From contig CBDCWI010000002.1 in the NCBI GenBank assembly GCA_965223325.1, positions 4,448,001 to 4,512,000 of the forward strand: a stretch of DNA of 64,000 nucleotides, given 5' to 3'. Positions 3,917 to 36,288 of the stretch are shown here, in pieces. This DNA comes from Candidatus Multivoradales bacterium (GTDB lineage: Bacteria > Acidobacteriota > Thermoanaerobaculia > Multivoradales > Multivoraceae). The notes beneath the pieces are model-generated. The model saw only the letters and a program-made list of their open reading frames with translations. It made no database searches and was not told the DNA's origin. Within the stretch, counting starts at the first letter, position 1. Every line of letters begins with the position of its first letter. The translations under genes were made by a program, and so were the position numbers.

Positions 3917-5773
3917 CTAAAGGGCGCAGGCCTCCTTCTGAAGAGAAGCGTCATCGGGCTCTTTGTCTTGTCCGTGCTCGGCGACCGGTGTCACCTCTTT
4001 TCCCATCGCCGATTCGATCAAGCGCATCAGGCGTCTGCGACGGTCCTCGAGGAACTCGTCGAAGTCATCGCGGCGCAAGAAACCGGGCGAGAGCGCGTGG
4101 CTCGAGAGCAGGTCGTCCATTTCGGCGTCACTCAGGGCCACCTGTTTGTGTTGCTGGATTCTCGGTAGGTATTGAGAGGGGGCTTCGCCACCAATCTTGC
4201 GATTGGCTTTGTAGGAGATCGGCGTCTTGTTGAGAATGGAGTCGTAGCGGTCCTTCCCGATGCCGTGCTTCCTGCACCAGGCACGCGGGAAGATGTGGTG
4301 GATATCGAGAGAGATCTCCTCGGTATCGAGTTCCTTGATGGTGGATTTCCAGAACCAGTCTCTCGAGCCTTCACGAAGAACGAGGACATTGATGCCCTTG
4401 TAGGCGGCGCTGAGCCGCGAGCGAAGCGTGTCGAGGCGCTCAGGCTGAAAGTTTGCGTCTCGCACGGTGCGTGGCAAGGTCGTGTCGTCTTCGAACCAGC
4501 GAAGGAGCTCTTCGTAGTCGTTGGCCATGCGGGTTTCAACGGCGCCGCCGTAGAGCTCACCCAGTACACCAGACCAGAACCAGCGAGCCAGCTTGTCGTA
4601 GACCCTGGGCTCGAGCCAGCGATCGCTCAGCTTCGTGAGCACTGCAGCCAGCGGGACGAGTTGTGTGCTGTAGGGCAGCTCTCGTCGGCTGTAGAAGCAT
4701 TCTTTTCGCAGGAAGCGCGCGGCGTTTCGGAACCCACCCTCCAGGTCATTGGCCCACTTCTTCCAAGCGGCCAATGGGAGCTGGAGTACGTCGGCCCGTT
4801 TCGCGCTCACGGGGCGAACCTGCTTCCCGCTCTTGCCGGCGGCAAGATCTGCTTTCCTCACTTCGTGGGTGTGAAGCAGACTGATGGCTTGAAGGAACTC
4901 TGTGGCCTCGGTTCCTTCGAGGAGTGGATCTTCTTCCAAACGGGCCTGCCTCGATTCGACTTCGCGAACATCCGAGCCGAACCAATCGTCTCGCAGGTTG
5001 TAGCCGTCGGCCGCATAGCTCGCGGTGATCAACTCGAAGACGGAAAGCTTCACGCCGCCGGTGTTCACTTTCTCGAACACCAGGCACACCGCTTCCTTCG
5101 ACGTCTCTTTCTTGAGCAGGATCAAAGGGAGTTGGTAGCTGCGGAAGGCCGTGAGGACATCGCTACGGAACTTCATGTAGGTGTCGAACTGGTCCGAGGC
5201 AACTCGGTGAAGGGTGGTCTCCCACTCATCGCAGCTCATCACTTGAGAACAGGGAAAGTGGAGCTGTTCGCATTCGCGTTCGGTACTCGAGAGGTCGAGA
5301 TCCACCTGCCGTCCGAAGTCGCTCCGGATCTGCCGGTTCTCGTCAACGGCAATTACGGCTTCGTCCAGGGCATGCGGCGCTTCTACCGCTCGCTTGATGT
5401 CGAAGTAGTAGTGGCGCTTGATCTTCTTGCCCTTCGCGGTCCGCGTGTTGACGGCCTGGGGGAGTGCGAGGGCTTGAGTGAGCGTGGTGAGGCGCTGTTG
5501 CCCATCGAGAATGAGCTTCTCGGGCGCCACGTCCTTCCCGATCATGTCCTCTAGCCCTTCGACAGGCCGGGTCTCGAAGCGGACTTCGCCGCCAGCTTCG
5601 AGCAGCATGACGGCGCCAATTGGAAAGGATCGCGCGATGCTGACGAGTAGATCCTGGATGTGATCGTCGTCCCAGACCCAGCCGCGTTGGAAGTCGGGAA
5701 GCTGGATCCTGCCTTCGGTGATTCCTCTCAGCAGGGCGTTCAGGGATTCCTTGGTGCTGTCGAATGTCGTCAT
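3917..5773 (-). CDS. GmrSD-like DUF262/DUF1524 modification-dependent restriction nuclease
   Basis: LPDFQRGWVW, ILDGQQRLTT, FEKVNTGG (DUF262) and DIHHIFP...N (HNH-like); start taken at MTTFDSTK. Confidence 0.85.
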   Translation of the reverse strand: MTTFDSTKESLNALLRGITEGRIQLPDFQRGWVWDDDHIQDLLVSIARSFPIGAVMLLEAGGEVRFETRPVEGLEDMIGKDVAPEKLILDGQQRLTTLTQALALPQAVNTRTAKGKKIKRHYYFDIKRAVEAPHALDEAVIAVDENRQIRSDFGRQVDLDLSSTERECEQLHFPCSQVMSCDEWETTLHRVASDQFDTYMKFRSDVLTAFRSYQLPLILLKKETSKEAVCLVFEKVNTGGVKLSVFELITASYAADGYNLRDDWFGSDVREVESRQARLEEDPLLEGTEATEFLQAISLLHTHEVRKADLAAGKSGKQVRPVSAKRADVLQLPLAAWKKWANDLEGGFRNAARFLRKECFYSRRELPYSTQLVPLAAVLTKLSDRWLEPRVYDKLARWFWSGVLGELYGGAVETRMANDYEELLRWFEDDTTLPRTVRDANFQPERLDTLRSRLSAAYKGINVLVLREGSRDWFWKSTIKELDTEEISLDIHHIFPRAWCRKHGIGKDRYDSILNKTPISYKANRKIGGEAPSQYLPRIQQHKQVALSDAEMDDLLSSHALSPGFLRRDDFDEFLEDRRRRLMRLIESAMGKEVTPVAEHGQDKEPDDASLQKEACAL

Positions 5774-6038
5774 GGGCTGGCGTTTCCTTGGCGTGTTTCG
5801 AGCGGTCGGGGCGGGTTCGAACTCGGTGGTCCGTTCGCTGTCACGGCATGCTCCGAGGGAACTCCCGGTGAATCGTAGGCCTCCCTCGTTGCTACTGCCG
5901 TGCACCGTCAGCGGTAGCCGGCGGGCGTCCCGCTGATTGGGAGTCACCCGAAGCACAGAAATTATAGATTAAGTAGAATTGCGAGACTTGGCTTTTCGGC
6001 AGCCAATACCTCATTTCGAGTTCTTTCGAGGGCAATCG

Positions 6039-7016
6039 ATGTCTATTCTCCGATTTGTGCTCCCCGCGCTTCTAGTCGCGCCCCTTCATCCCTCTCCTCC
6101 AGAAAGAGACGTGACCACCGTGCCCTCTGGGACCCGCGCTCGCGCCGTTCTCGTGGATTGGCTCGGTTCACGCGGTACAGATGTTGGGGCCGAGCCGCTC
6201 TTCTGCCTCGATGAGGATGTCCACGCTGGCACGAGCACTTTGCTCAACCGCGGCATGCCGGTCGTGGGCATTGTGGATCGGGTGTCGACGGGCGGAGCCG
6301 GGTTTGACCCGGGCGACATCGCAGTTCGGCTCAAGGTCCTCCTGACACCGGACGGCGGGCGTATCTCGGTCTCGGGTTCCGGTTCTTTCGTCGGCGGGAG
6401 CAACGCCGCTAGTGCCGTGTGGGGGGGTCTGATGGCCCTGGGCACTCGCGGAGACGACGTGAAACTGCCGCCTGGAACGGCGATTGAGTTCGAGACGGCG
6501 GCCGAGGCGTCCTGGTCGCGCGAAGCGGAGGTTGACGGGCCAGAGTGGAGGCGCTGCCGTGACTTTCTCCAGTTCGCGCAACTCCCGGCTCTGCCTCTTT
6601 CCGAGCTCGAGACGGCCAAGACGTACCGGTGGCCCGGGAATGAACTGGTTGGAGACCTGGACGTCGCGGATCTCGAGGAGGGTTCGCAGACTCCCGTTCA
6701 ACTCCGGGGGGTCGTCATCTACGACGCCTTCTTGCTGAACACGAAGTTCGGCTTGACCCTTTCCAAGAAGAAGGCGGCTTTCGATCTCTCCACGATCATT
6801 CAGGTGCTCGAGTCGCACGATAAGCGCGTAGACATGCGGGTGAGTTTGCTCGATGGCGACGAAGTGCTCGCGACTGTTCTCAAGAAGGGAATCGACGCCG
6901 AGGAGGAGAAGGTCAAGAAGGTCGATCTCCGGCTTCGGACGGAGCGCGAGCTGTACGAGCGCGCGGTTAATTCAGGCGGCGGTCGACTTCGGCTGGAGAT
7001 GAAGGTGCGAGAGTAG
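6039..7016 (+). CDS. Exported hypothetical protein
   Basis: Signal-like N-terminus MSILRFVLPALLVA; C-terminal domain similar to 43095-43619. Confidence 0.7.
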   Translation: MSILRFVLPALLVAPLHPSPPERDVTTVPSGTRARAVLVDWLGSRGTDVGAEPLFCLDEDVHAGTSTLLNRGMPVVGIVDRVSTGGAGFDPGDIAVRLKVLLTPDGGRISVSGSGSFVGGSNAASAVWGGLMALGTRGDDVKLPPGTAIEFETAAEASWSREAEVDGPEWRRCRDFLQFAQLPALPLSELETAKTYRWPGNELVGDLDVADLEEGSQTPVQLRGVVIYDAFLLNTKFGLTLSKKKAAFDLSTIIQVLESHDKRVDMRVSLLDGDEVLATVLKKGIDAEEEKVKKVDLRLRTERELYERAVNSGGGRLRLEMKVRE

Positions 7017-7024
7017 TTCAGAGC

Positions 7025-7075
7025 CTAAGGGTCGAGCCAGTCTGAACCGCCCGATCGGGGTGGTCGGTGTTCGTT
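7025..7075 (-). pseudogene. 3' remnant of an immunity-gene paralog
   Basis: Reads NEHRPPRSGGSDWLDP* versus YEHRLPWSGGSDRLDP* at the end of 1605-1970. Confidence 0.65.
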
Positions 7076-7149
7076 GGCGTCCCCAGGGAGTCGTCGGCCG
7101 CGTCACACTGTAGCTACGGGTACCGTCATTCGCCCTGGCGGCGTTCCGC

Positions 7150-8675
7150 GCCTGGCGGCTTTCAAGGCACCTATGTTTCACAGCCATTCGAGGTTCACGC
7201 GCCTGCCGAGATTCACGAGCGTCAGCGGCCATCTGGAAAGTGAGCCACCTTGCCTCCAGCGGCGTGCCACCGGCGTAGTACTGCCACGCGACGCCCCGCG
7301 AGCCGCTTGGAACAACGGCACTCGAAGGTGGGGGCCGTAACAAGAGCGCAGATTCTCGGGAGGTACGACTACCAGTTCGCCAAACAACGGCAGCTTCCTC
7401 CCCATGCGTTTCGCCAAGCCCAGGATCTACACGCCCAACCGCGTCGTCGAAGTCACCACGCGCTGCCTCCAGTCGCGTTTCCTCCTGCGCCCGAGCAAAG
7501 AAGTCAACAACGAGATCATCGCCGGCTCGTGCGCAGCGGCTCTACGGAGTGAGCGTCCACGCCTTCTGGTTCGGCTCAAACCACTGCCACCTCTTGCTGT
7601 CTGCCGCATCGCAGTGGCACATCTCGCGCCTCATGGGTTTCACCAACGGAAACATCGCGAGACGAGTTGGCCGGTTGCAGCGTTGGCAGCGAGCGGTTCT
7701 GGTGTCGCCGCTACCAGGGCATCGAACTCACCGCGGAGCCTCAAGCGGCGTTCCAGCGCCTGCGCTACGTCATGGCGCAGGGCTGCAAAGAAGGGCTGAT
7801 TGAATCGCCGCTTGACTGGCCCGGTGTGACGAGTGCTCGGGCTCTTGCCGACGGTTCGATGAAGCTCTCGGGCGTCTGGCTAGATCGCACCGGCTTGTAC
7901 CACGAGCGCGTCCGCCGAGGAGTTATAGGCCCGCGATCCAAACAGCTGAGCCGGAGCGAGCGTCGCGAGGCGAGTCGCAAGATCGACATCACCGAGTTCG
8001 AGACGGTCGAGGAGCTCACTCTCGAGCTTCTGCCGCACTTTGCCGAGCTGAGCGCCGAGGCCTACCGCAAGATGCTCGTCTCGATGATCGAAGACATCGA
8101 GGAAGAGACAGGCCAACGCCTCGATCTCGAAGGTGGGCGGAGCATGGGACGCGAGAAGATCCTCGCCCAGGACCCTCACGCCGCTCCGCGGCAGTCGAAG
8201 CGCAGTCCCGCCCCGGCCTGCCACGCCCACACCCGGGAACAGCGCGTCGCGTTCATCGTCAACCGCTGGCATTTCGTTGTGGCGTACAGGAGGGCGGCGA
8301 GTAGGTTGCGTTCGGGTGAGGAGAACGTCGCGTTCCCGCGAGGTTGCTTTCCGCCGCGTGGCGCGTTCGTTCCGCACGTGGCTCGCGCTCCTGGATAGAA
8401 GGACTTCAGAGTTGCGTCTTTTTGGGACGGCGAATCACGAGATCGCGGCGCGAGCTATGGCGCAGTCAACCGCGCAGCGGCTTGGACCGGCTTGGACGGT
8501 GGTTTGAGGCGTGGTCGCGCCGCGTTGAGGAGGTGTTTGGAGCGGATCTGTTTACGCAGGTTCAGTACGGCCGCAGACTTGGCTCCGGGATCCGACTCGT
8601 GAATCTCGGCATGCGCGTGAATTTCGCATGGCTGTGAAACATAGTTGCCTGGAACGTCTCGAGGCGAAGCCTCGG
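7150..8675 (+). mobile_element. Family-A HUH element copy A1 (frameshifted)
   Basis: Degenerate left end; intact right end ending cgaggcgaagcctcgg; left boundary approximate. Confidence 0.85.
7404..8398 (+). pseudogene. RAYT-like Y1 transposase, family A, two frameshifts
   Basis: 4-bp deletion near 7525 and 1-bp insertion near 7688 relative to intact copy 17097-18095. Confidence 0.85.
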
Positions 8676-8689
8676 GACGGGAGTCCCTC

Positions 8690-10526: not shown

Positions 10527-11597
10527 ATGGCGAAGGTGACGAAGGTGAACGTGCTTGTGCTTGGTCTCCTTGTCTTGTTGGTACAGATGATCGGTTGTCA
10601 GCCCGCGTCCGACGAAACGGCTGACGCCACTGCCGACGCTGGGGCTCACGCTGGCGAAAGTCCGGACGTCGAAGCGCAGATCGCGGATGCGTTGTCGGCA
10701 GCGCTCCCGTCGATGGCAGCGACCGCGAGGGTCGTGGACTGGGATGGAAACGTGCTACGGGACGGTGACGGCCCCTACACTTGTATGCCAACTCCGCCAC
10801 AGTTCGTGGATGGCCGTGCCCCGATGTGCATGGACAAGCCGTGGTCGGCATGGGCCGATGCTTGGGGTCGTCGCACCGAGCTCTCGATCTCGCACCTCGG
10901 GATCTCCTACATGCTGGCCGGCGACGAAGGCGCGAGCAACATCGACCCCTTCGCCACCGAGGCTACAGCGGAGAACGAGTGGGTGGTGGAAGGGCCGCAC
11001 CTGATGCTTATCGTGCCCGACCCGGCGCTGCTCGAGGGCATCTCGACCGACCCAGACAACGGCGGTCCTTACGTGATGTGGAAAGGGACGCCCTACGCTC
11101 ACGTTATGGTTCCGGTGGAGCTCAGCGACGTTACGGAGGCCGCCCCAGACGCTCTTGCCGACGCGTTGTCGGCGGCCAACCCGTCGATGGCCAACAGGGT
11201 GACCGTGATGGACTGGGAGGGCAACGTTTTGAGGGAAGGTGAGGGTGACTACACCTGCATGCCAACTCCACCACAGTTCGCCGACGGTCGAGCTCCGATG
11301 TGCATGGACGCGCCCTGGTCTGCCTGGGCCGAGGCCTGGAGCAGCCGCGGTGAGCTCACCATCGATCGGCTCGGGATCTCCTACATGCTGGCCGGTGACG
11401 AGGGCGCGAGCAACGTCGACCCCTTCGCCACGGAGGCGACGGCTGATAACGAGTGGGTAGTGGAGGGGCCGCACCTGATGCTCATCGTGCCCGACCCGGC
11501 GCTGCTCGGGAACATCGGCACCGACCCAGACAACGGCGGACCGTACGTGATGTGGGAGGGGTCACCCTACGCACATGTGATGGTGCCCTTGGACTAA
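10527..11597 (+). CDS. Putative lipoprotein with two tandem ~150-aa domains
   Basis: Hydrophobic leader ending MIGC; ADALSAA...YTCMP...APMCMD...ISYMLAGD...GPHLM...YAHVMVP present twice. Confidence 0.8.
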   Translation: MAKVTKVNVLVLGLLVLLVQMIGCQPASDETADATADAGAHAGESPDVEAQIADALSAALPSMAATARVVDWDGNVLRDGDGPYTCMPTPPQFVDGRAPMCMDKPWSAWADAWGRRTELSISHLGISYMLAGDEGASNIDPFATEATAENEWVVEGPHLMLIVPDPALLEGISTDPDNGGPYVMWKGTPYAHVMVPVELSDVTEAAPDALADALSAANPSMANRVTVMDWEGNVLREGEGDYTCMPTPPQFADGRAPMCMDAPWSAWAEAWSSRGELTIDRLGISYMLAGDEGASNVDPFATEATADNEWVVEGPHLMLIVPDPALLGNIGTDPDNGGPYVMWEGSPYAHVMVPLD

Positions 11598-12883: not shown

Positions 12884-14283
12884 GATCGCGCGGCGATGCC
12901 GCCCACGGTCGGGGGTAAGTTTTGAGTCGAAGTTGTGGCGCAGGGCCGGGACTCGCCACCGACCTGACGTGTAGCCCGATTCACAAATGACAGTTGGTCG
13001 ATGGCGAGGGTCATCCGCTAAGATTTCACTCCCTGCAGGACATCGATGGCTCCGGGCGAAGAGTCATGGCCCATCAACTGAGATACGTCCCCACCGACTC
13101 GAGCGGTTGGGGAGTCGTCGAAGTGACGGTGCGCATCGTCAACGGATTCTTCCTGTTGGCGCCATCGTCACGCCTGCGCGACCTGCTGATCGGGATCATC
13201 GGCCGCGCGCAGCGAAAGACCGAAATCCGGATCCACGCCCTGGACTACCAGGTCAATCATGCCCACCTTCTGCTGGGCGCTCGCGACGCCCAGCAGCTGG
13301 CCGATTTCATGCGGCGCATTCAGCACCAGACGAGTGTGGAACTACGGATCCTGCGCGGGTGGAAGGGTCCGAAATGGGAAGGGCCCTACAAGACGTCGTT
13401 CCCCGGTCACGCGAAGAAGGACCTCTGCCGGCGCTTTCGCTACATCCTTGCCCAGGGTTGCAAGGCGGGGTTGGTGTCTTCACCTCGCAAGTGGCCAGGC
13501 GTGTCGGTAGGGGAGGCGTTGTGGTCAGGGACCTTCGAGCTCGAGGGCACCTGGGTCGATCGTTCAGCGCTTCGTCGTGCCCGTTTCTCGAAAGCCGGTC
13601 GTCGTTTGAGCGAAAAGGACTTCTCGAGCCGCGAGACGGTCGTTTTATCGAAGCTTCCGTGCTTCGAGGACCTCCCTGACGAGGAGTACTTCGACTGGGC
13701 CCGCGGGATGATTGTTGAGATCGAGGACGAGACCCGGGTGCGCCACAAACGGGAGGGAACGAGGCCTCGCGGCGCCTACAAGACAACGCAGGTGAGTCCG
13801 ATGCGCCGTCCGAGGAAGCTCGATTGGGGGCCGAGGCCTCGGGTCATCGCGTCGGACTCGTTCGAGCGCAATCGGCTGCTTTCGGTTTTCGATGCGGTGA
13901 GGCGAGCGCATCGCGCGGCGCGCGATCTTCTGTGGAGTGGTGACCTGGAGGCGCGATTTCCGCCCGGGACTTTTCCAAGCCCGCTGCCGTTTGTGGCCCT
14001 GGAAGTGGCTGGGCCGGGTGCACGCGACGGTCCCTGAGTCCAGGCCGCCGCCGAAGAGGTTGACGAGGTTGAGGGGGACGCACCGGCAGGTGTGGTGGCG
14101 GAGCTGCGTCTGTCGGGTGGAGTGCCGAGGCTTCAGGGGTGGCGAAGGCGACGTCTCTGCCCTCGCGACACCCATCGAGGTGGTGAAAGAGGACGATGGA
14201 GTGCTTCGGAACTCGGCGCGTCGCCTTGTCTGGTGTTGCCGTGAAAACTTACCCCCTACCGTGCGCGGCATCGCCGCGCGATC
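12884..14283 (+). mobile_element. Family-B HUH element copy B1 (1400 bp)
   Basis: GATC-hairpin inverted ends on both sides; no TSD. Confidence 0.9.
13066..14037 (+). CDS. RAYT-like Y1 HUH transposase, family B
   Basis: VEVTVR, NHAHLLL (HUH), RYILAQGCKAGLVSSPRKWPG (putative catalytic Tyr). Confidence 0.8.
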   Translation: MAHQLRYVPTDSSGWGVVEVTVRIVNGFFLLAPSSRLRDLLIGIIGRAQRKTEIRIHALDYQVNHAHLLLGARDAQQLADFMRRIQHQTSVELRILRGWKGPKWEGPYKTSFPGHAKKDLCRRFRYILAQGCKAGLVSSPRKWPGVSVGEALWSGTFELEGTWVDRSALRRARFSKAGRRLSEKDFSSRETVVLSKLPCFEDLPDEEYFDWARGMIVEIEDETRVRHKREGTRPRGAYKTTQVSPMRRPRKLDWGPRPRVIASDSFERNRLLSVFDAVRRAHRAARDLLWSGDLEARFPPGTFPSPLPFVALEVAGPGARDGP

Positions 14284-14484
14284 CCCGGAAACACTGGCCT
14301 GAAATCGCCGTCTGACGAGGGGGTTTTTGGCCACCCCTCCCCCAGCCGACCCGAGGCCTCGCCTCGGGTCGGTCTGTATGCGCGGGTTTCTACCCCGCAT
14401 CAGCACACCATCGCCATGCAGCTGCACCAGCTGCGCGAGTTCCTCGAGCGACGAGGCTGGCAAGAGACGATCGTCGTCAAGGAG
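14284..14484 (+). pseudogene. Serine recombinase (resolvase) N-terminal fragment
   Basis: RVGLYARVSTPHQHTIAMQLHQLREFLERRGW with the catalytic YARVS motif; lies between two B ends. Confidence 0.8.
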
Positions 14485-14485
14485 G

Positions 14486-15885
14486 CGGGCGGCGATGCCG
14501 CCCCCGGCCGCCCCCGGTCGGGGGTAAGTTTTGAGCCGAAGTTGTGGCGCAGTGCGACGCCTCGCCACCGACCGGACGTGTAGCCCGATTCACAAATGAC
14601 AGTTGGTCGATGGCGAGGGTCATCCGCTAGGATTCGGCTCCCTGCAGGACATCGATGGCTCCGGGCGAAGAGTCATGGCCCATCAACTGAGATACGTCCC
14701 CACCGACTCGAGCGGTTGGGGAGTTGTCGAAGTGACGGTTCGAATCGTCAACGGGTTCTTCCTGTTGGCGCCATCGTCACACCTACGCGACCTGCTGATC
14801 GGGATCATCGGCCGCGCGCAGCGAAAGACCGAGATCCGGATTCACGCCCTGGACTACCAGGTCAATCATGCTCACCTTCTGCTGGGCGCTCGCGACGCCC
14901 AACAGCTGGCCGACTTCATGCGGCGCATTCAGCACCAGACGAGTGTGGAACTACGGATCCTGCGCGGGTGGAAGGGTCCGAAATGGGAAGGGCCGTACAA
15001 GACGTCGTTTCCCGGTCACGCGAAGAAGGACCTCTGCCGTCGTTTCCGCTACATCCTTGCCCAGGGTTGCAAGGCGGGGTTGGTGTCTTCACCGCGCAAG
15101 TGGCCAGGCGTGTCGGTGGGGGAGGCGCTGTGGTCAGGGACCTTCGAGCTCGAGGGCACGTGGGTCGACCGCTCCGCGCTTCGACGTGCTCGTTTCTCGA
15201 AAGCGGGGCGTCGTTTGAGCGAAAAGGACTTCTCGAGCCGCGAGACGGTCGTCTTATCGAAGCTTCCGTGCTTCGAGGACCTCCCGGACGAGGAGTACTT
15301 CGACTGGGCCCGCGGGATGATTGTAGAGATCGAGGACGAGACCCGGGCGCGCCACAAGCGAAAGGGCACGAGGCCTCGCGGCGCCTACAAAACGACGCAA
15401 GTGAGTCCAATGCGTCGCCCGCGGAAGCTGGATTGGGGGCCGAGGCCTCGGGTCATCGCGTCGGACTCGTTCGAGCGCAATCGGCTGCTTTCGGTTTTCG
15501 ATGCGGTGAGGCGAGCGCATCGTGCGGCGCGCGATCTTCTGTGGGGTGGTGACCTGGAGGCGCGGTTTCCCCCCGGAACTTTCCCAAGCCCGCTGCCGTT
15601 CGTGGCCCTGGAAGTGCCTGGGCCGGGTGCACGCGACGGTCCCTGACGGCCCAGGCCACCGGCGAAGAGGTTGAGGGGGACGCACCGATCGGTGTGTTGG
15701 CGGAGCTCCGTTTGTCGGGCGGAGTACCGACGTTCAGGAGTGGCGACGGCGAGGTTTCTGCCTTCGTCACCGCCCTTCGAGGTCGGAGAAGAGGGCGATG
15801 GAGCGCGCGAAGGCTCGGCGCTTCGTCCAGTCCAGCGTTGCCGTCAAAACTTACCCCCGACCGTGCGCGGCATCGCCGCGCGATC
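14486..15885 (+). mobile_element. Family-B HUH element copy B2 (damaged left hairpin)
   Basis: Left end lacks GATC and has a gccgcccccg duplication; right end canonical. Confidence 0.85.
14675..15646 (+). CDS. RAYT-like Y1 HUH transposase, family B
   Basis: Near-identical to 13066-14037. Confidence 0.8.
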   Translation: MAHQLRYVPTDSSGWGVVEVTVRIVNGFFLLAPSSHLRDLLIGIIGRAQRKTEIRIHALDYQVNHAHLLLGARDAQQLADFMRRIQHQTSVELRILRGWKGPKWEGPYKTSFPGHAKKDLCRRFRYILAQGCKAGLVSSPRKWPGVSVGEALWSGTFELEGTWVDRSALRRARFSKAGRRLSEKDFSSRETVVLSKLPCFEDLPDEEYFDWARGMIVEIEDETRARHKRKGTRPRGAYKTTQVSPMRRPRKLDWGPRPRVIASDSFERNRLLSVFDAVRRAHRAARDLLWGGDLEARFPPGTFPSPLPFVALEVPGPGARDGP

Positions 15886-16418
15886 CAACGGTCGGCGGAG
15901 ACGAAGCCGCCGTTGTCGCTGTTGTAGAAGCGTTTCGTCGTTCCGTCCGAGAGCACCAGGAGAGGGCTGTCGGGGTTGAACTCACTACTGCCGGCACCGT
16001 TCGGGTTGAAGACCTTGCCCGCGTGCAGTTGCCATCCCGAGCCACCCATGTGATCTGTCGTGTCTGAAGACGCCACGTGGGTCTGGCGCACGTCGGTGCG
16101 GTTCCAGACGTCGGAGTTGTAGTAGAGGTTGACCTGCAGGCGCAGGTCGGCCCTCACCGGAAGGTCGATAGGCGTCATACGAAACATGACTCGGCCACCG
16201 AACAGGTCGAAGTCCTCTTCGAAGCCCCCGAGGACAGCTCCGTTGGTGACCTCAGAGAGATAGCGATCGTGAGTCGGCTCGTCGCCCGCGGTCTGCGCCG
16301 TGAGCTGGCTGGTCAGGCCATGCAGGAGAGCAAGAAGGATTGCGGCGGCGACGAGAATGGGACCGCTCGGAGCCGCTTCAGGAGGCGTACGGTCGAAGAC
16401 GGTGGGCTGGGCTGTCAT
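15886..16418 (-). pseudogene. 5' fragment of an RHS/YD-repeat-like exported protein
   Basis: Hydrophobic leader, then DLFGGRV...IDLP...LQVNLYYNS...GSGWQL...LVLSDGT like RHS N-termini; cut at the B2 right end. Confidence 0.6.
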
Positions 16419-16671: not shown

Positions 16672-16809
16672 ATGACCGACATCAGAAACGACAATCCCTC
16701 GGGATTCAGCCTCAACCTGCCCGACACCTTCGGCGGTTCCGATGGCGGTTTCGGAACCTCACCGAGCCTCGAGAACCACAGCTACGAACCGTCGGGTCCC
16801 GGCGGCTGA
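16672..16809 (+). pseudogene. 5' fragment of a paralog of the 1967-3799 toxin gene
   Basis: MTDIRNDNPSGFSLNLPDTFGGSDGGFGTSPSLENHSYEPSG versus MTDIRNDNSSGFGLNLADTFGGSDGGFGTSTSLENDSYEPSG; upstream DNA also similar. Confidence 0.85.
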
Positions 16810-16836
16810 CAAAGTAGTCAGCTCGGTAACAGGCAC
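16805..16836 (+). repeat. Piece of IS110 leader (hairpin)
   Basis: gctgacaaagtagtcagctcggtaacaggcac is the near-exact reverse complement of ~36197-36228. Confidence 0.75.
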
Positions 16837-18350: not shown

Positions 18351-18365
18351 GAGAACTCGGCGCGG

Positions 18366-21459: not shown

Positions 21460-22985
21460 GGCCGACGCTCCAGGCACCTATGTTTCATAGCCATGCGAGG
21501 TTCACGCGCCTGCCGAGATTCACGAGCGTCAGCGGCCGTCAGGAAAGTGAGCCACCTTGCCTCCAGCGGCGTGCCACCGGCGAAGTCCTGCCAGGCGATG
21601 CCCCGCGAGGCGCTTTGAACAACGGCACTCGAAGGCGGGGGCCGTAACAAGAGCGCAGATTCTCGGGAGGTACGACAACCAGGATCGCCAAACAACGGCA
21701 GCTTCCTCCCCATGCGTTTCGCCAAGCCCAGGATCTACACGCCCAACAGCGTCGTCGAAGTCACCACGCGCTGCCTCCAGTCGCGTTTCCTCCTGCGCCC
21801 GAGCAAAGAAGTCAACAACGAGATCATCGCCGTCCTGGCTCGTGCGCAGCGGCTCTACGGAGTGAGCGTCCACGCCTTCTGGTTCGGCTCAAACCACTGC
21901 CATCTCTTGCTGTCCGCCGAATCGCAGTGGCACATCTCGCGCTTCATGGGTTTCACCAACGGAAACATCGCGAGACGAGTTGGCCGGTTGCAGCGTTGGC
22001 GCGAGCGGTTCTGGTGTCGCCGTTACCAGGGCATCGAACTCACCGACGAGCCGCAAGCCGCCTACCAGCGTCTCCGCTACGTCTTGGCGCAGGGCTGCAA
22101 AGAAGGGCTGATTGATTCGCCGCTTGACTGGCCCGGTGTGACCAGTGCTCGCGCTCTTGCCGGCGGCTCGATGAAGCTCTCGGGCGTCTGGCTAGATCGC
22201 ACCGGCCTGTACCACGAGCGCGTCCGCCGAGGAGTGATCGGCCCGCGATCCAAACAGCTGAGCCGGAGCGAGCGTCGCGAGGCGAATCGCAAGATCGACA
22301 TCACCGAGTTCGAGACGGTCGAGGAGCTCACTCTCGAGCCCCTGCCGCACTTTGCCGACCTGAGCGCCGAGGCCTACCGCAAGATGATCGTTTCGATGAT
22401 CGAAGACATCGAGGAAGAGACAGGCCAACGCCTCGATCTCGAAGGTCGGCGGAGCATGGGACGCGAGAAGATTCTCGCCCAGGACCCTCACGCCGCTCCG
22501 CGGCAGTCGAAGCGCAGCCCCGCCCCGGCCTGCCACGCCCACACCCGGGAACAGCGCGTCGCGTTCATCGTCAACCGCTGGCATTTCGTTGTGGCGTACA
22601 GGAGGGCGGCGCGTAGGTTGCGTTCGGGTGAGAAGAACGTCGCGTTCCCTCGAGGTTGCTTTCCGCCGCGCGGCGCGTTCGTTCCGCACGCGGCTCGCGC
22701 TCCTGGATAGAAGGACTTCAGTGTTGCGTCTTTTGGGGACGGCGATCACGAGATCGCGGCGCGAGTTATGGCGCAGTCAATCGCGCAGCGGCTTGGACTG
22801 GCTTGGACGGTGGTTTGAGGTGTGATCGAGCCGCGTTGAGGAGGTGTTTGGAGCGGATCTGCTTGCGCATGTCCAGTACGGCCGCAGACTTGGCTCCGGG
22901 ATCCGACTCGTGAATCTCGGCATGCGCGTGAACCTCGCATGGCTATGAAACATAGTTGCCTGGAACGTCTCCGAGGCGGCCTCGG
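21460..22985 (+). mobile_element. Family-A HUH element copy A3
   Basis: Inverted ends; right hairpin ccgaggcggcctcgg; left boundary approximate. Confidence 0.85.
21712..22710 (+). CDS. RAYT-like Y1 HUH transposase, family A
   Basis: Intact 332 aa, near-identical to A2. Confidence 0.8.
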   Translation: MRFAKPRIYTPNSVVEVTTRCLQSRFLLRPSKEVNNEIIAVLARAQRLYGVSVHAFWFGSNHCHLLLSAESQWHISRFMGFTNGNIARRVGRLQRWRERFWCRRYQGIELTDEPQAAYQRLRYVLAQGCKEGLIDSPLDWPGVTSARALAGGSMKLSGVWLDRTGLYHERVRRGVIGPRSKQLSRSERREANRKIDITEFETVEELTLEPLPHFADLSAEAYRKMIVSMIEDIEEETGQRLDLEGRRSMGREKILAQDPHAAPRQSKRSPAPACHAHTREQRVAFIVNRWHFVVAYRRAARRLRSGEKNVAFPRGCFPPRGAFVPHAARAPG

Positions 22986-23545
22986 GAGATCGAGGACGAG
23001 ACCCGGGCGCGCCACAAGCGAAAGGGCACGAGGCCTCGCGGCGCCTACAAAACGGCGCAGGTGAGTCCGATGCGCCGTCCGAGGAAGCTCGATTGGGGGC
23101 CGAGGCCTCGGGTCATCGCGTCGGACTCGTACGAACGCAATCGGCTGCTTTCGGTTTTCGATGCGGTGAGGCGAGCGCATCGTGCGGCGCGCGATCTTCT
23201 GTGGGGTGGTGACCTGGAGGCGCGGTTTCCCCCCGGAACTTTCCCAAGCCCGCTGCCGTTCGTGGCCCTGGAAGTGCCTGGGCCAGGTACACGCGACGGT
23301 CCCTGACGGCCCAGGCCACCGGCGAAGAGGTTGAGGGGGACGCACCGATCGGTGTGTTGGCGGAGCTCCGTTTGTCGGGCGGAGTACCCACGTTCAGGAG
23401 TGGTGAAGGCGAGGTTTCTGCCTTCGTCACCGCCCTTCGAGGTCGGAGAGGAGGGCGATGGAGCGCGCGAAGGCTCGGCGCTTCGTCCAGTCCAGCGTTG
23501 CCGTCAAAACTTACCCCCGACCGTGCGCGGCATCGCCGCGCGATC
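22986..23545 (+). mobile_element. 5'-truncated family-B element
   Basis: Starts at EIEDETR codons directly after the A3 hairpin; canonical right end. Confidence 0.9.
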
Positions 23546-24297
23546 TTCGAGCTCGAGGGCACCTGGGTCGATCGTTCGGCGCTTCGCCGTGCCCGTTTCT
23601 CGAAAGCCGGTCGTCGTTTGAGCGAAAAGGACTTCTCGAGCCGCGAGACGGTCGTGTTATCGAAGCTTCCGTGCCTCGAGGACCTCCCTGACGAGGAGTA
23701 CTTCGACTGGGCCCGCGGGATGATTGTTGAGATCGAGGACGAGACCCGGGTGCGCCACAAGCGAGAGGGGACGAGGCCTCGCGGTGCCTACAAGACGATG
23801 CAGGTGAGTCCGATGCGCCGTCCGAGGAAGCTCGATTGGGGGCCGAGGCCTCGGGTCATCGCGTCGGACTCGTACGAACGCAATCGCCTGCTTTCGGTTT
23901 TCGATGCGGTGAGGCGAGCGCACCGCGCGGCACGGGATCTTCTGTGGAGTGGTGACCTGGAGGCGAAGTTTCCGCCTGGCACTTTTCCAAGCCCGCTGCC
24001 GTTTGTGGCCTTGGAAGTGCCTGGGCCGGGTGCACGCGACGGTCCCTGACGGTCCGGGCCGCCGGCGAAGAGGTTGACAAGGTTGAGGGTGACGCACCTA
24101 TCGGTGTGATGGCGGAGCTGCGTTTGTCGGGCAGAGTGCCGAGGTTTCAGGGGTGGCGAAGGCGAGGTTTCTGCCCTCGCGATGACCGATCGAGGTGGTG
24201 GAGAAGGCTGATGGAGCGCTCTGGATTCGGCGCGGCGCCTTCGTCGGCGCTGCCATCAAAACTTACCCCCTACCGTGCGCGGCATCGCCGCGCGAAC
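23546..24297 (+). mobile_element. 5'-truncated family-B element
   Basis: Starts at FELEGTW directly after a B GATC end; ends in GAAC instead of GATC. Confidence 0.9.
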
Positions 24298-24369
24298 TGA
24301 CTACTTTGTCAGCTGCCTGGGAGGCCGACCGACTCATTTCATCTGGAACGTCTCGAGGCGAAGCCTCGG
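24297..24369. repeat. IS110 leader remnant fused to the tip of a family-A right end
   Basis: ctgactactttgtcagctgcctgggaggccgaccgactcatttcat-CT-ggaacgtctcgaggcgaagcctcgg; same junction at 36258. Confidence 0.8.
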
Positions 24370-27037: not shown

Positions 27038-27142
27038 TGCCATCAAAACTCACCCCCTACCGTGCGCGGCCTCTCGGCGCGCCGCCCAGTACGGCGATGC
27101 CGTCAACCTTACCCCGACCGTGCGCAGCATCGCCGCGCGATC
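27038..27142 (+). repeat. Two extra degenerate tandem copies of the B right end
   Basis: tgccatcaaaactcaccccctaccgtgcgcggc... and tgccgtcaaccttaccccgaccgtgcgcagcatcgccgcgcgatc. Confidence 0.85.
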
Positions 27143-31798: not shown

Positions 31799-33389
31799 CC
31801 GAGGCTTCGCCTCGCCTCGGCGACGTTCCAGGCACCTATGTTTCACTGCCATGCGAGGGTTCACGCCCCCGCCAAGGCTTCGCCTCGGCGATGTTCCAGG
31901 CACCTATGATTCACAGCCATGCGAGGTTCACGCGCCTGCCGAGATTCACGAGTGTCAGCGGCCATCAGAAAGTGAGCCACCCCGCCTTCAGCGGCGTTAG
32001 TACGCCACGTGACGCCCCGCGAGCCGCTTAGAACAACGGCACTCGAAGGTGGAGGCCGTAACAAGAGCGGAGATTCTCGGGAGGTACGACAACCAGTTCG
32101 CCAAACAACGACAGCTTCCTCCCCATGCGTTTCGCCAAGCCCAGGATCTACACGCCCAACCGCGTCGTCGAAGTCACCACGCGCTGCCTCCAGTCGCGTT
32201 TCCTCCTGCGCCCGAGCAAAGAAGTCAACAACGAGATCATCGCCGTCCTGGCTCGTGCGCAGCGGCTCTACGGAGTGAGCGTCCACGCCTTCTGGTTCGG
32301 CTCAAACCACTGCCATCTCTTGCTGTCCGCCGCATCGCAGTGGCACATCTCGCGCTTCATGGGTTTCACCAACGGAAACATCGCGAGACGAGTTGGCCGG
32401 TTGCAGCGCTGGCGCGAGCGGTTCTGGTGTCGCCGCTACCAGGGCATCGAACTCACCGACGAGCCGCAGGCCGCCTACCAGCGCCTGCGCTACGTCTTGG
32501 CGCAGGGCTGCAAAGAAGGGCTGATTGATTCGCCGCTTGACTGGCCCGGTGTGACGAGTGCTCGCGCTCTTGCCGACGGTTCGATGAAGCTCTCGGGCGT
32601 CTGGCTAGATCGCACTGGCTTGTACCACGAGCGCGTCCGTCGAGGAGTTATCGGCCCGCGATCCAAACAGCTGAGCCGGAGCGAGCGTCGCGAGGCGAAT
32701 CGCAAGATCGACATCACCGAGTTCGAGACGCTCGAGGAGCTCACTCTCGAGCCCCTGCCGCACTTTGCAGACTTGAGCGCCGCGGCCTACCGCAAGATGC
32801 TCGTTTCGATGATCGAAGACATCGAGGAAGAGACAGGCCAACGCCTCGATCTCGAAGGTGGGCGGAGCATGGGGCGCGAGAAGATCCTCGCCCAGGACCC
32901 TCACGCCGCTCCGCGCCATTCGAAGCGCAGCCCCGCCCCGGCCTGCCACGCCCACACCCGGGAACAGCGCGTCGCGTTCATCGTCAACCGCTGGCGTTTT
33001 GTTGTGGCGTACAGGAGGGCGGCGCGTAGGTTGCGTTCGGGTGAGGAGAACGTCGCGCTCCCGCGAGGTTGCTTCCCGCCGCGTGGCGCGTTCGTTCCGC
33101 ACGCGGCTCGCGCTCCTGGATAGACGAGTTTCAGCGCAGCGTCTTCCGCGTCGGCGATCACGAGGTCGCGGCGCGAGCTATGGCTTTGGTTGTTGCGCTG
33201 GCGACTCGCGGGCGGTTCGGGGCGTGACCGGGCCCTGGCGACCAGTCGTTTCGCGCGAATCGGTTAGCGCGTGCTCAGCAAAGCGGTGAGTTTCGCGCCG
33301 GAGTCTGCCTCGTGAATCTGGGTATGCCCCTGAAGCTCGCTTGGCACCGAAACATAGTTGCCTGGAACGTCTCCGAGGCGAAGCCTCGG
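31799..33389 (+). mobile_element. Family-A HUH element copy A4 with tandemly doubled left end
   Basis: Left-end unit occurs at ~31799 and ~31872; right end ccgaggcgaagcctcgg. Confidence 0.9.
32125..33123 (+). CDS. RAYT-like Y1 HUH transposase, family A
   Basis: Intact 332 aa. Confidence 0.8.
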   Translation: MRFAKPRIYTPNRVVEVTTRCLQSRFLLRPSKEVNNEIIAVLARAQRLYGVSVHAFWFGSNHCHLLLSAASQWHISRFMGFTNGNIARRVGRLQRWRERFWCRRYQGIELTDEPQAAYQRLRYVLAQGCKEGLIDSPLDWPGVTSARALADGSMKLSGVWLDRTGLYHERVRRGVIGPRSKQLSRSERREANRKIDITEFETLEELTLEPLPHFADLSAAAYRKMLVSMIEDIEEETGQRLDLEGGRSMGREKILAQDPHAAPRHSKRSPAPACHAHTREQRVAFIVNRWRFVVAYRRAARRLRSGEENVALPRGCFPPRGAFVPHAARAPG

Positions 33390-33394
33390 CGTGG

Positions 33395-33780
33395 GGCCCG
33401 GGAATGAACTGGTTGGAGACCTGGACGTCGCGGATCTCGAGGAGGGTTCGCAGACTCCCGTTCAACTCCGGGGGGTCGTCATCTACGACGCCTTCTTGCT
33501 GAACACGAAGTTCGGCTTGACCCTTTCCAAGAAGAAGGCGGCTTTCGATCTCTCCACGATCATTCAGGTGCTCGAGTCGCACGATAAGCGCGTAGACATG
33601 CGGGTGAGTTTGCTCGATGGCGACGAAGTGCTCGCGACTGTTCTCAAGAAGGGAATCGACGCCGAGGAGGAGAAGGTCAAGAAGGTCGATCTCCGGCTTC
33701 GGACGGAGCGCGAGCTGTACGAGCGCGCGGTTAATTCAGGCGGCGGTCGACTTCGGCTGGAGATGAAGGTGCGAGAGTAG
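33395..33780 (+). pseudogene. Duplicate of the 3' part of the 6039-7016 gene
   Basis: Matches 6631-7016 (offset 26764). Confidence 0.9.
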
Positions 33781-33913
33781 TTCAGAGCCTAAGGGTCGAG
33801 CCAGTCTGAACCGCCCGATCGGGGTGGTCGGTGTTCGTTGGCGTCCCCAGGGAGTCGTCGGCCGCGTCACACTGTAGCTACGGGTACCGTCATTCGCCCT
33901 GGCGGCGTTCCGC

Positions 33914-35437
33914 GCCTGGCGGCTTTCAAGGCACCTATGTTTCACAGCCATTCGAGGTTCACGCGCCTGCCGAGATTCACGAGCGTCAGCGGCCATCTGG
34001 AAAGTGAGCCACCTTGCCTCCAGCGGCGTGCCACCGGCGTAGTACTGCCACGCGACGCCCCGCGAGCCGCTTGGAACAACGGCACTCGAAGGTGGGGGCC
34101 GTAACAAGAGCGCAGATTCTCGGGAGGTACGACTACCAGTTCGCCAAACAACGGCAGCTTCCTCCCCATGCGTTTCGCCAAGCCCAGGATCTACACGCCC
34201 AACCGCGTCGTCGAAGTCACCACGCGCTGCCTCCAGTCGCGTTTCCTCCTGCGCCCGAGCAAAGAAGTCAACAACGAGATCATCGCCGGCTCGTGCGCAG
34301 CGGCTCTACGGAGTGAGCGTCCACGCCTTCTGGTTCGGCTCAAACCACTGCCACCTCTTGCTGTCTGCCGCATCGCAGTGGCACATCTCGCGCCTCATGG
34401 GTTTCACCAACGGAAACATCGCGAGACGAGTTGGCCGGTTGCAGCGTTGGCAGCGAGCGGTTCTGGTGTCGCCGCTACCAGGGCATCGAACTCACCGCGG
34501 AGCCTCAAGCGGCGTTCCAGCGCCTGCGCTACGTCATGGCGCAGGGCTGCAAAGAAGGGCTGATTGAATCGCCGCTTGACTGGCCCGGTGTGACGAGTGC
34601 TCGGGCTCTTGCCGACGGTTCGATGAAGCTCTCGGGCGTCTGGCTAGATCGCACCGGCTTGTACCACGAGCGCGTCCGCCGAGGAGTTATAGGCCCGCGA
34701 TCCAAACAGCTGAGCCGGAGCGAGCGTCGCGAGGCGAGTCGCAAGATCGACATCACCGAGTTCGAGACGGTCGAGGAGCTCACTCTCGAGCTTCTGCCGC
34801 ACTTTGCCGAGCTGAGCGCCGAGGCCTACCGCAAGATGCTCGTCTCGATGATCGAAGACATCGAGGAAGAGACAGGCCAACGCCTCGATCTCGAAGGTGG
34901 GCGGAGCATGGGACGCGAGAAGATCCTCGCCCAGGACCCTCACGCCGCTCCGCGGCAGTCGAAGCGCAGTCCCGCCCCGGCCTGCCACGCCCACACCCGG
35001 GAACAGCGCGTCGCGTTCATCGTCAACCGCTGGCATTTCGTTGTGGCGTACAGGAGGGCGGCGAGTAGGTTGCGTTCGGGTGAGGAGAACGTCGCGTTCC
35101 CGCGAGGTTGCTTTCCGCCGCGTGGCGCGTTCGTTCCGCACGCGGCTCGCGCTCCTGGATAGAAGGACTTCAGTGTTGCGTCTATTGGGACGGCGATCAC
35201 GAGATCGCGGCGCGAGCTATGGCGCAGTCAACCGCGCAGCGGCTTGGACTGGCTTGGACGGTGGTTTGAGGTGTGATCGAGCCGCGTTGAGGGGGTGTGT
35301 GGAGCGGATCTGCTTGCGCATGTTCAGTATGGCCACGGGCTTGGCTCCGGGATCCGGCTCGTGAATCCCGGCATGCGCGTGAACCTCGCATGGCTGTGAA
35401 ACATAGTTGCCTGCAACGTCTCGAGGCGAAGCCTCGG
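33914..35437 (+). mobile_element. Family-A HUH element copy A5 (same frameshifts as A1; CDS 34168-35162)
   Basis: ORF track translations match A1 except near the C-terminus; 3' UTR closer to A3. Confidence 0.85.
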
Positions 35438-35442
35438 GGGGG

Positions 35443-35990
35443 GGACGAGACCCGGGCGCGCCACGAGAGGGGACTAGGCCTCGCGGTGCCTACAAGACGA
35501 CACAGGTGAGTCCGATGCGCCGTCCGAGGAAGCTCGATTGGGGGCCGAGGCCTCGGGTCATCGCGTCGGACTCGTACGAGCGCAATCGGCTGCTTTCGGT
35601 GTTCGATGCAGTGAGGCGAGCGCATCGCGCGGCGCGCGATCTTCTGTGGGGTGGTGACCTGGAGGCGCGGTTTCCCCCCGGAACTTTCCCAAGCCCGCTG
35701 CCGTTTGTGGCCCTGGAAGTGCCTGGGCCGGGTGCACGCGACGGTCCCTGACGGCCCAGGCCACCGGCGAAGAGGTTGAGGGGGACGCACCGATCGGTGT
35801 GTTGGCGGAGCTCCGTTTGTCGGGCGGAGTACCGACGTTCAGGAGTGGCGAAGGCGAGGTTTCTGCCTTCGTCACCGCCCTTCGAGGTCGGAGAAGAGGG
35901 CGATGGAGCGCGCGAAGGCTCGGCGCTTCGTCCAGTCCAGCGTTGCCGTCAAGACTTACCCCCGACCGTGCGCGGCATCGCCGCGCGATC
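35443..35990 (+). mobile_element. 5'-truncated family-B element
   Basis: Follows a G9 run; canonical right end. Confidence 0.9.
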
Positions 35991-36259
35991 AAGAGTCGGT
36001 TCAGCCACGGGCTCTGCGCGCATGCCTCCAGAGCAATGCCTCTGCATGTGCGATCGGCGAAGAAGCGCCGCATGCGCTCTTGCGTCGTGGGAATCTCGCA
36101 GCGCTCTACGACCGCGCCCTCTTCGGAGATCTCACAGATCGCACTGGTCTTCACATGGACGTCGATGCCAAAGTAACTCATGGTCGGTCTCCTTCCGTGC
36201 CTGTTACCGAGCTGACCACTTTGTCAGCTGCCTGGGAGGCCGACCGACTCATTTTATCT
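35991..36259 (-). mobile_element. IS110-family remnant: leader plus transposase N-terminus (start 36181)
   Basis: MSYFGIDVHVK...IALEA (first D and E of the DEDD RuvC-like domain); AAGGAG RBS; clipped at a B end. Confidence 0.85.
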
Positions 36260-36288
36260 GGAACGTCGCCGGAACGTCTCCGAGGCGA

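Follow-up and report, generated by a model that had tools for sequence, protein, structure and literature searches.

Ectopic gene conversion, template switching at microhomology and the collapse of tandem duplications leave a common signature, namely a perfect tract in otherwise diverged sequence with one homologous and one microhomology junction. Flank-carrying copies are also generated by transposons that depend on HUH enzymes. In IS91 and ISCR elements, as portrayed in PMC13181058, the constant end is the right one, downstream of the transposase gene, whereas failures occur at the left end, and DNA to its left is co-mobilized by an HUH enzyme; Helitrons such as Helraiser use a hairpin as boundary and produce truncated and flank-carrying copies as well as copies abutting the hairpin end of another copy (PMC4778049). 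These descriptions bear on a locus in the genome of a Candidatus Multivoradales bacterium of the phylum Acidobacteriota (GenBank assembly GCA_965223325.1, contig CBDCWI010000002.1, positions 4,448,001–4,512,000 of the forward strand; this stretch of 64,000 bp is referred to as the window). Two families of clustered transposons, A and B, are found here, and one copy of A, designated A5, is preceded by 518 bp of the left flank of another copy, A1. A and B are multi-copy, insertion sequence (IS)-like members of the Y1/RAYT superfamily, and A5 is best read as a recombinant patch and not as a product of transposition.

Self-BLAST of the window aligned positions 6631–8676 with 33395–35438 (98.9% identity over 2,046 bp). 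Base-by-base alignment and a scan for exact matches resolved this similarity into two parts: 33395–35142 is 100% identical to 6631–8378 over 1,748 bp, and right after this perfect tract 8379–8676 and 35143–35438 differ at 23 of 298 positions (92% identity). The perfect tract comprises 518 bp of left flank (6631–7148) and positions 1–1230 of A1; the copied flank in turn consists of the last 386 bp of an orphan open reading frame (ORF; 5979–7016) and a spacer of 132 bp. The transposase gene of A1 is inactivated by two frameshifts, one from a deletion of 5 bp near 7523 and one from an additional A at 7688; both recur in A5, and neither occurs in the five other A copies. An earlier note, made from the letters of the sequence alone, had claimed that 33395–~35140 duplicates 6631–~8376, that a dead A1 was copied along with ~520 bp of its left flank, including the 3' part of a cargo gene and both frameshifts, that the copy starts 5 nt after the right hairpin of the copy A4, and that its 3' untranslated region looks more like copy A3. 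The alignments bear out all of this, and the pairwise comparison for which the note called places the switch from perfect to 92% identity at 8378/35142.

Because position 6631 sits inside a continuous ORF, while 33395 is a junction, A1 is the source. Both copies, about 26.8 kb apart, are located on one contig. Full copies of the flank 6631–7148 occur twice in the 6.69-Mb assembly, besides one piece of 195 bp with 82.6% identity, and the flank lies outside all repeat families. The orphan ORF has no match in Pfam, NCBIfam or PADLOC and only one distant homologue (35% identity). No remnant of the remainder of this ORF is present upstream of A4, and the first 40 nt of the flank have no exact match in the metagenome contigs or genome contigs scanned.

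The right part of A5 differs from that of A1. Its tail is more similar to the tail of A3 (91.6%) than to those of A6 (89.2%) and A1 (88.3%), and tail, right end and the adjoining B fragment (B positions 846–1404) align as one block with A3 and its B fragment (B positions 838–1404) at 95% identity. Since tail and B fragment match the A3 arrangement, the right part of A5 is resident and old; being old and unlike A1, it requires homologous recombination, and the position of the right boundary inside homologous A sequence likewise indicates homologous exchange. The perfect tract thus ends within homologous sequence and is surrounded by older divergence, as in a recombinational mosaic. Exchange among copies is common at this locus, because the A copies are broadly mosaic, with a closest relative that shifts along the element in sliding windows, and because B2/B8 and B3/B7 have identical tracts beside patches of ~10% divergence. 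Between B2 (14283–15886) and B8 (2,137,403–2,135,812 of contig C1), a gene-conversion-like patch of 350 bp (15316–15662) contains 34 differences; elsewhere, including the left spacer of 223 bp, 1 substitution and a 10-bp indel were counted. Simple nested insertion was considered as well, but at A2, A3, A5 and the B fragment at 23542 the left part of the interrupted element does not precede the inserted left end, as it should in such a case.

Homologous recombination alone leaves the left junction unexplained. The copy begins 5 nt (CGTGG, 33390–33394) past the A4 hairpin, and 2 nt (GG) on a strict count, or up to 4 nt (GTGG) when the G run may differ in length by 2 nt, are ambiguous between the partners; beyond these, 6541–6630 shows no similarity to the A4 end. 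By arithmetic from the terminus map, a random breakpoint would fall ≤5 nt after one of the ~19 right-end termini in 64 kb with a chance of ~0.002. As a candidate for a pseudo left end at 6631, the segment 6619–6630 agrees with the A left terminus in 8 of its 12 nt; with a chance of ~0.17 for such a match within 30 nt, it was judged by eye not to be significant. The variable left starts are not preceded by a fixed target tetranucleotide (GACC, GTAG, CGAG, CTCG and GTGG were read), and the bases that follow the right ends vary and contain no target motif. Short runs of G or C (GGGG, G9, C8) were observed at junctions beside right ends, at 33391–33396, ~35430–35442 and ~2,133,030 of C1, possibly reflecting untemplated addition, slippage or homopolymer error.

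Junctions at right-end termini are found elsewhere in the array as well. Six of about 15 5'-truncated fragments adjoin a complete right end (at 18365, 22986, 23542, 27038, 35443, and 2135785 of C1); the right-end junctions join A2 to B(1288), A3 to B(838), A5 to B(846), B to B(651), and B3 to partial right ends. Fragments that retain the right end are more numerous than those that retain the left end (~16 vs ~9, and 6 vs 1 among fragments >300 bp), which is a trend but not a rule. The earlier note had seen in the B fragments the same polarity as in the flank carry-over. Fragments with preserved right ends and variable left starts are indeed real, but left-end-keeping fragments exist, too. Flank sharing was tallied for both sides: left flanks are common to A1/A5 and to B2/B8 (223 bp), and right flanks to A3/A5 (550 bp including the B fragment) and to the pair formed by B7 and the fragment of B at 35443, where an IS110-like remnant accounts for the ~280 bp. 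Carry-over on both sides weakens the polarity argument. Among the 16 dispersed Y1 loci of the genome, all ten pairs of at least 85% identity show clean homology of element length, with no contiguous flank on either side.

In an array at the end of C1, the right end of B8 is followed directly by B(~1375–1402); in the window, the right end of B2 is followed by 8.4 kb and then by B(651–1402). With 224 bp of identical DNA to the left and 1,640 bp to the right of the C1 junction, the difference is a recent deletion with its left end exactly at a right-end terminus. Other genomes were surveyed in 80 regions of ~9 kb, taken from the matches listed, and three array loci of 12 genomes, which form a small and mutually related sample. 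Within these genomes, 24 pairs share at least 85% identity; extra left flank (~250 bp) was detected in one pair, from genome G012, and extra right flank in none, whereas 5'-truncated copies are involved in three pairs and 3'-truncated ones in none. Right-end-anchored junctions recur here and in two other genera, and in genomes G008 and G031 a truncated copy begins right after a right-end terminus. Compared with general recombination of the kinds named at the outset, this locus is peculiar in that illegitimate junctions recur at a single defined transposon terminus, a recurrence suggestive of a site-specific break.

Several smaller observations concern the same termini. In L094 (G031:C35:1-14329), complete RayT-like copies and fragments are densely nested in one orientation; among them are a 5'-truncated copy 97% identical to its neighbor and another that begins 2 nt past a right-end terminus. 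In places, right ends are followed by a "stutter" of one or two partial right-end copies (27038–27142 in the window, 5281–5415 in locus L015 and ~5359–5480 in L017), which in G012 takes the form of a 69-bp tandem pair of 100% identity.

From these features we infer a break, its cause and an order of steps. Probably, though with considerable room for doubt, a break at the A4 right end was repaired by copying the A1 locus, with the copying over-running into the A1 flank; a collapsed tandem duplication would be equivalent. An older A copy ("A5old") with its B fragment would already have been present downstream of A4 when a DNA end formed exactly at the A4 right-end terminus. This end might be due to the Y1 transposase of the element itself, nicking the lagging-strand template at that point, or to a replication fork stalled at the terminal hairpin; Y1 enzymes, as characterized in PMC5027513, act on single-stranded DNA of the lagging-strand template, and their cut leaves the upstream side with a 3'-OH and the downstream side with a 5'-phosphotyrosine. 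Repair would then be templated by the A1 locus via the homology between A5old and A1, so that A1 positions 1–1230 and a further 518 bp of its left flank were copied, the over-run being due to the lack, at the A1 locus, of anything corresponding to the A4 end. Such a process would result in a homologous junction at or left of 35142/35143 and an illegitimate junction at 33390–33396.

Three routes could lead to this outcome: synthesis-dependent repair that starts on the right and is completed on the left by end joining, priming from the A4 3' end at microhomology followed by a homologous return, or a 26.8-kb tandem duplication joined at 33394/6631 that collapsed between the second A1 and A5old. 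A break with a defined left end and a processed right end would have three outcomes. Simple joining would yield a right-end-anchored deletion with a truncated neighbor. A right end situated in a repeated element could invade a paralogue and be extended leftward beyond it, giving rise to flank carry-over, and the mirror order, in which the 3' end primes at microhomology and returns by homology, would lead to the same. If this is correct, the locus provides a natural example of clustered single-strand transposons that destabilize a defense island, their ends being break points and their bodies homology for the copying of neighboring gene pieces; most likely, the case represents a tidy, fairly ordinary reshuffling of a defense-gene island by clustered transposons.

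A number of points count against repair of a break at the A4 end. The event is single, and no intermediate was seen; cleavage of the right end by the A transposase is presumed, and the inverted ends are symmetric, so that an intrinsic bias toward the right end is not obvious. Nine of the ~15 5'-truncated fragments lie away from a right end. In G012, two of three array copies have ~250 bp of common left flank and none shares right flank, which fits polar copying. Moreover, the mutated left terminus of A1 would be predicted by a read-through model, but is a coincidence if the copy arose by repair.

Read-through of a failed terminus, acting in trans on a dead copy as in IS91/ISCR or Helitron flank transduction, was the explanation offered by the earlier note. 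Spelled out, it would have the transposase of an intact A start at the A1 right end, miss the damaged left end and stop 518 bp beyond; the unit would insert just behind the A4 right end, forming a tandem with a resident A, and recombination would delete the right part of the new and the left part of the resident copy. We regard this as unlikely, even though it accommodates much of what is observed. The left terminus of A1 is aberrant (TTTCAAGG vs GTTCCAGG) and lacks the canonical outer hairpin, intact 332-aa ORFs that could act in trans are present in A2, A3, A4 and A6, the copy starts at a right-end terminus, chains of 5'-truncated, right-end-keeping copies are found here and in G008 and G031, and in the 12 other genomes the only shared extra flank is a left one. 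IS91, according to PMC13181058, fails at its left terIS in 1–10% of events and then co-mobilizes adjacent DNA, and truncations as well as read-through are reported for Helraiser in PMC4778049. However, read-through from the A1 right end would copy that end and its tail, which is not seen; a tandem intermediate and a fast deletion must therefore be added, and the extra recombination that replaced the right end and tail of A1 by those of A5 would have to fit within zero substitutions of time. The transposase moreover belongs to Y1 (PF01797) and not to Y2, inverted repeats form the ends, excision of IS200/IS605 relatives is precise according to PMC5027513, flank is lacking in the ten dispersed pairs, there is neither a pseudo left end at 6631 nor a motif common to the variable left starts, and right flanks are shared as well. 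As to the left hairpin of A1, described as degenerate in the earlier note, the first bases of the repeat are mutated, but the defect of the outer hairpin is not specific to A1: the canonical form is also missing in A2, A3 and A6, and the region is heterogeneous in all copies. The read-through interpretation was thus partly right in its geometry, with a dead A1, a copied flank and a junction at a right end; the event requires homologous recombination and can do without read-through transposition.

Quite improbable is an older duplication that placed a diverged ORF 3' end and an A copy beside A4, followed by a recent gene conversion, homologous over its whole length and with the A1 locus as donor, that erased the divergence. 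Gene conversion among the copies is frequent, and composite units of A plus B fragment were duplicated long ago, but identity is perfect to the junction base, so that conversion would have to reach the last base of homology; the rest of the ORF left no trace upstream of A4, and an earlier flank-carrying duplication would still be needed and remain unexplained. Least probable of the explanations considered is an assembly artefact or strain chimera, in which the second copy or the junction would not be present on one molecule. The assembly stems from mixed samples, its contig ends overlap other parts at 99.3–100% identity, and no contig bridging 33391/33395 was found among the contigs listed, a point noted also against the repair of a break at A4, though not used as evidence. 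On the other hand, the junction sequence is unique and cannot be derived from either parental context. Read support was assessed indirectly, on contigs assembled from four public runs that represent two samples of one study. Contigs carrying the flank start exactly at 33395 in two of the four runs, as expected of a sequence with two left contexts, and in a third run the sequence ahead of 33395 is that of the source. Their depth is about twice that of unique neighbors in both runs of sample S1 (94.8 vs 47.7 and 31.1, and 6.5 vs 4.1 and 2.9), and both copies are placed on one contig. In sample S2, the bins 33100–33321 have no cover, a gap that was not used as evidence. Most loose contig ends map to other loci of the same assembly; eight of 14 loose ends looked up have no good match in the assembly and probably derive from other strains.

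The contig overlaps are extensive. The last 11,498 bp of contig C2 (4,534,597–4,546,094) correspond to 2,088,678–2,100,169 of C1 with 99.88% identity up to the last base, and positions 1–3000 of C2 and of C1 match C1 57,542–60,543 and C1 46,710–49,709, respectively, at 99.3–100%. The 44-kb array at the end of C1 may represent the same locus in a co-assembled strain rather than a paralogue, and comparisons with C1 were therefore used for rearrangements only and not as additional cases of flank carry-over. Two B copies of C1 located 7 kb apart, at 2,142,755–2,144,090 and 2,135,816–2,137,151, are 100% identical over 1,336 bp to the contig end and differ in their right flanks, suggesting a very recent duplication of B or an unresolved repeat.

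Rather than repair of a break, one may consider a second, right-end-anchored mode of the RayT-like Y1 elements of this acidobacterial order, in which a transposase-made 3' end primes on or captures DNA from an arbitrary point; this we put forward as a tentative and rather unlikely idea. A start inside a neighbor would yield a 5'-truncated copy, and a start upstream of it would carry along flank and cargo. Such a mode would build co-oriented arrays that shuffle defense-island genes, and would be a Y1 analogue of IS91/Helitron capture. If the junctions are transposase-made, Y1 elements would have to be counted, with IS91, ISCR and Helitrons, among the HUH elements that capture genes, a role not known for Y1; full-text searches of open-access papers and preprints retrieved no report of flank capture by Y1 elements.

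Element A is ~1.5 kb long, with five copies in the window and two at the end of C1; element B measures 1.4 kb and is represented by ~10 copies plus fragments. Each contains a single ORF (332 or 347 aa), and its Y1_Tnp domain is the sole Pfam match (PF01797; 34.1 bits for A and 25.2 bits for B, at a cut-off of 23). The best NCBIfam match, NF047646 (REP-associated tyrosine transposase), reaches 36.7 bits and thus remains below the curated cut-off of 80. An HCH motif at residues 62–64 and a Y-x3-Q motif (RYVLAQ) were read by eye; domain, HUH motif and catalytic tyrosine together assign the proteins to the Y1 HUH transposases of the IS200/IS605–RAYT superfamily. The ends of A are 60-bp terminal inverted repeats with a GC hairpin outside them, those of B are inverted repeats of ~45 bp that include the terminal hairpin, and each terminal motif occurs ~10–20 times in the genome. 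Homologues of ~310 aa are widespread, including several in metagenome-assembled genomes of Acidobacteriota, and some sources (JGI) name them RayT. Of 41 genomes searched, made up of the present one and 40 relatives, 29 contain transposase matches; the present genome has 44 of them and counts 38 Y1 loci. A search among genome contigs for loci related to the A protein gave no confirmed relative, a 25-nt string from the A right end had no exact match in the metagenome contigs, a sequence search of the PDB returned no match, and neither did Rfam at gathering threshold or tRNA scans. In the C2 array, the G-rich strand carries all 11 Y1 loci; a replication-directed orientation bias as a general rule was rejected, as loci outside the arrays are split 11 vs 10.

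Measured against the described systems, A and B fit none completely. IS91 has a Y2 enzyme, distinct ori and ter ends without inverted repeats, and a target tetranucleotide by the ori end, as described in PMC13181058; here, neither a Y2 enzyme nor a target tetranucleotide was found, nor a constant ori end with the whole element moved, the copy lacking the right 298 bp of A1. Helitrons are mobilized by the eukaryotic RepHel, with a constant 5' end and bypass of the hairpin 3' end (PMC4778049), whereas the hairpin right end is the constant one in this locus. With the "peel and paste" elements of the IS200/IS605 family, A and B have in common a Y1 HUH enzyme and hairpin ends; for such enzymes, PMC5027513 describes a 5'-phosphotyrosine intermediate and use of the lagging-strand template, and the dispersed copies in this genome have precise ends. 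However, IS200/IS605 elements as described there are devoid of long inverted repeats and encode a protein of ~150 aa; the proteins considered here have 332–347 aa, with a C-terminal half that lacks an assignment, and the combination of subterminal hairpins with a ~150-aa transposase is absent. The likeness to RAYTs and their repetitive extragenic palindromic (REP) sequences lies in the best NCBIfam match, the RayT names, the inverted hairpin repeats, and REP-like doublets on dispersed relatives. RAYTs are typically single-copy and accompanied by many REPs according to PMC5581495, in contrast to 7 A, ~10 B and ~20 copies of the REP-like motifs in this genome; neither an NF047646 score at equivalog level nor a single-copy gene with abundant REP/REPIN sequences was found.

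The positions of the features discussed are compiled in the table below. The surrounding genes include a GmrSD-like gene, a methyltransferase gene, genes of an SMC-like ATPase and a phosphoesterase, a SIR2-like gene and a gene of a type IIG enzyme, a neighborhood that looks like a defense island. An orthologous island was not found in 12 relatives.

Features of the A1 and A5 loci and their surroundings (positions refer to the window)
Feature	Position	Strand	Basis or remark
Source tract: 518 bp of flank and A1 positions 1–1230	6631..8378	+	alignment and exact-match scan; 6631 inside ORF, no junction there
Copied tract: flank copy 33395–33912, then A5 positions 1–1230	33395..35142	+	100% identical to 6631–8378
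Illegitimate junction	33390..33396	+	A4 ends ...CCTCGGCG; copy GTGGGGCCC vs source GGTGGCCC
Mosaic element A5: left part new and derived from A1, right part old and resident	33913..35438	+	
Old resident tail and right end of A5, 92% like A1, identical to no extant copy	35143..35438	+	
5'-truncated B fragment (B positions 846–1404) adjoining the A5 right end	35443..35990	+	
A3 and B fragment (B positions 838–1404), older paralogue (95%) of the A5 right part and its B fragment	21463..23545	+	
Element A1; transposase broken by 5-bp deletion (~7523) and +1 A (7688); mutated left terminus	7149..8677	+	ORFs 7404–7799 and 7667–8398
Orphan ORF ("cargo gene"), 345 aa as listed, also a 325-aa gene call	5979..7016	+	ORF list
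Solo A left-end fragment (A positions 1–56), directly before A4	31820..31876	+	
Element A4, intact 332-aa Y1 transposase ORF 32125–33123	31881..33391	+	
A4 right-end terminal hairpin CCGAGGC-GAA-GCCTCGG	33373..33389	+	
IS110-like transposase gene remnant (5' end, N-terminus), cut by B right end	35991..36262	-	family read from N-terminal peptide

Remnants of the IS110-like gene are located at 35991–36262 (−), 24293–24347 (−) and 16798–16836 (+) of the window and at 2132751–2133022 and 2135733–2135787 of C1; a full-length copy is not present in the assembly. The family name was read from the N-terminal peptide (MSYFGIDVHVKT...) and not from a profile search. At its outer end, the IS110-like sequence borders on the final 27 nt of an A-type right end (CTGGAACGTCTC and hairpin), which looks like targeting of the A terminal repeat.

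A third RayT-like family, ~60% identical to B, is dispersed over the genome and has clean ends (C1 205201, 581180, 904514, 970219, 1242637 and 1917419; C2 785086 and 1927916); doublets of the REP-like motif CAGTCGGGGGGACTTTCC occur on both flanks. A 356-aa ORF at 10527–11597, for which no family was found, contains an internal tandem repeat (10683–11110 and 11157–11584) of 80% identity. Finally, 67777–80047, counted in window coordinates, comprises three tandem paralogous units of ~2.6–4 kb that are 82–94% identical to C1 2,100,176–2,104,179.

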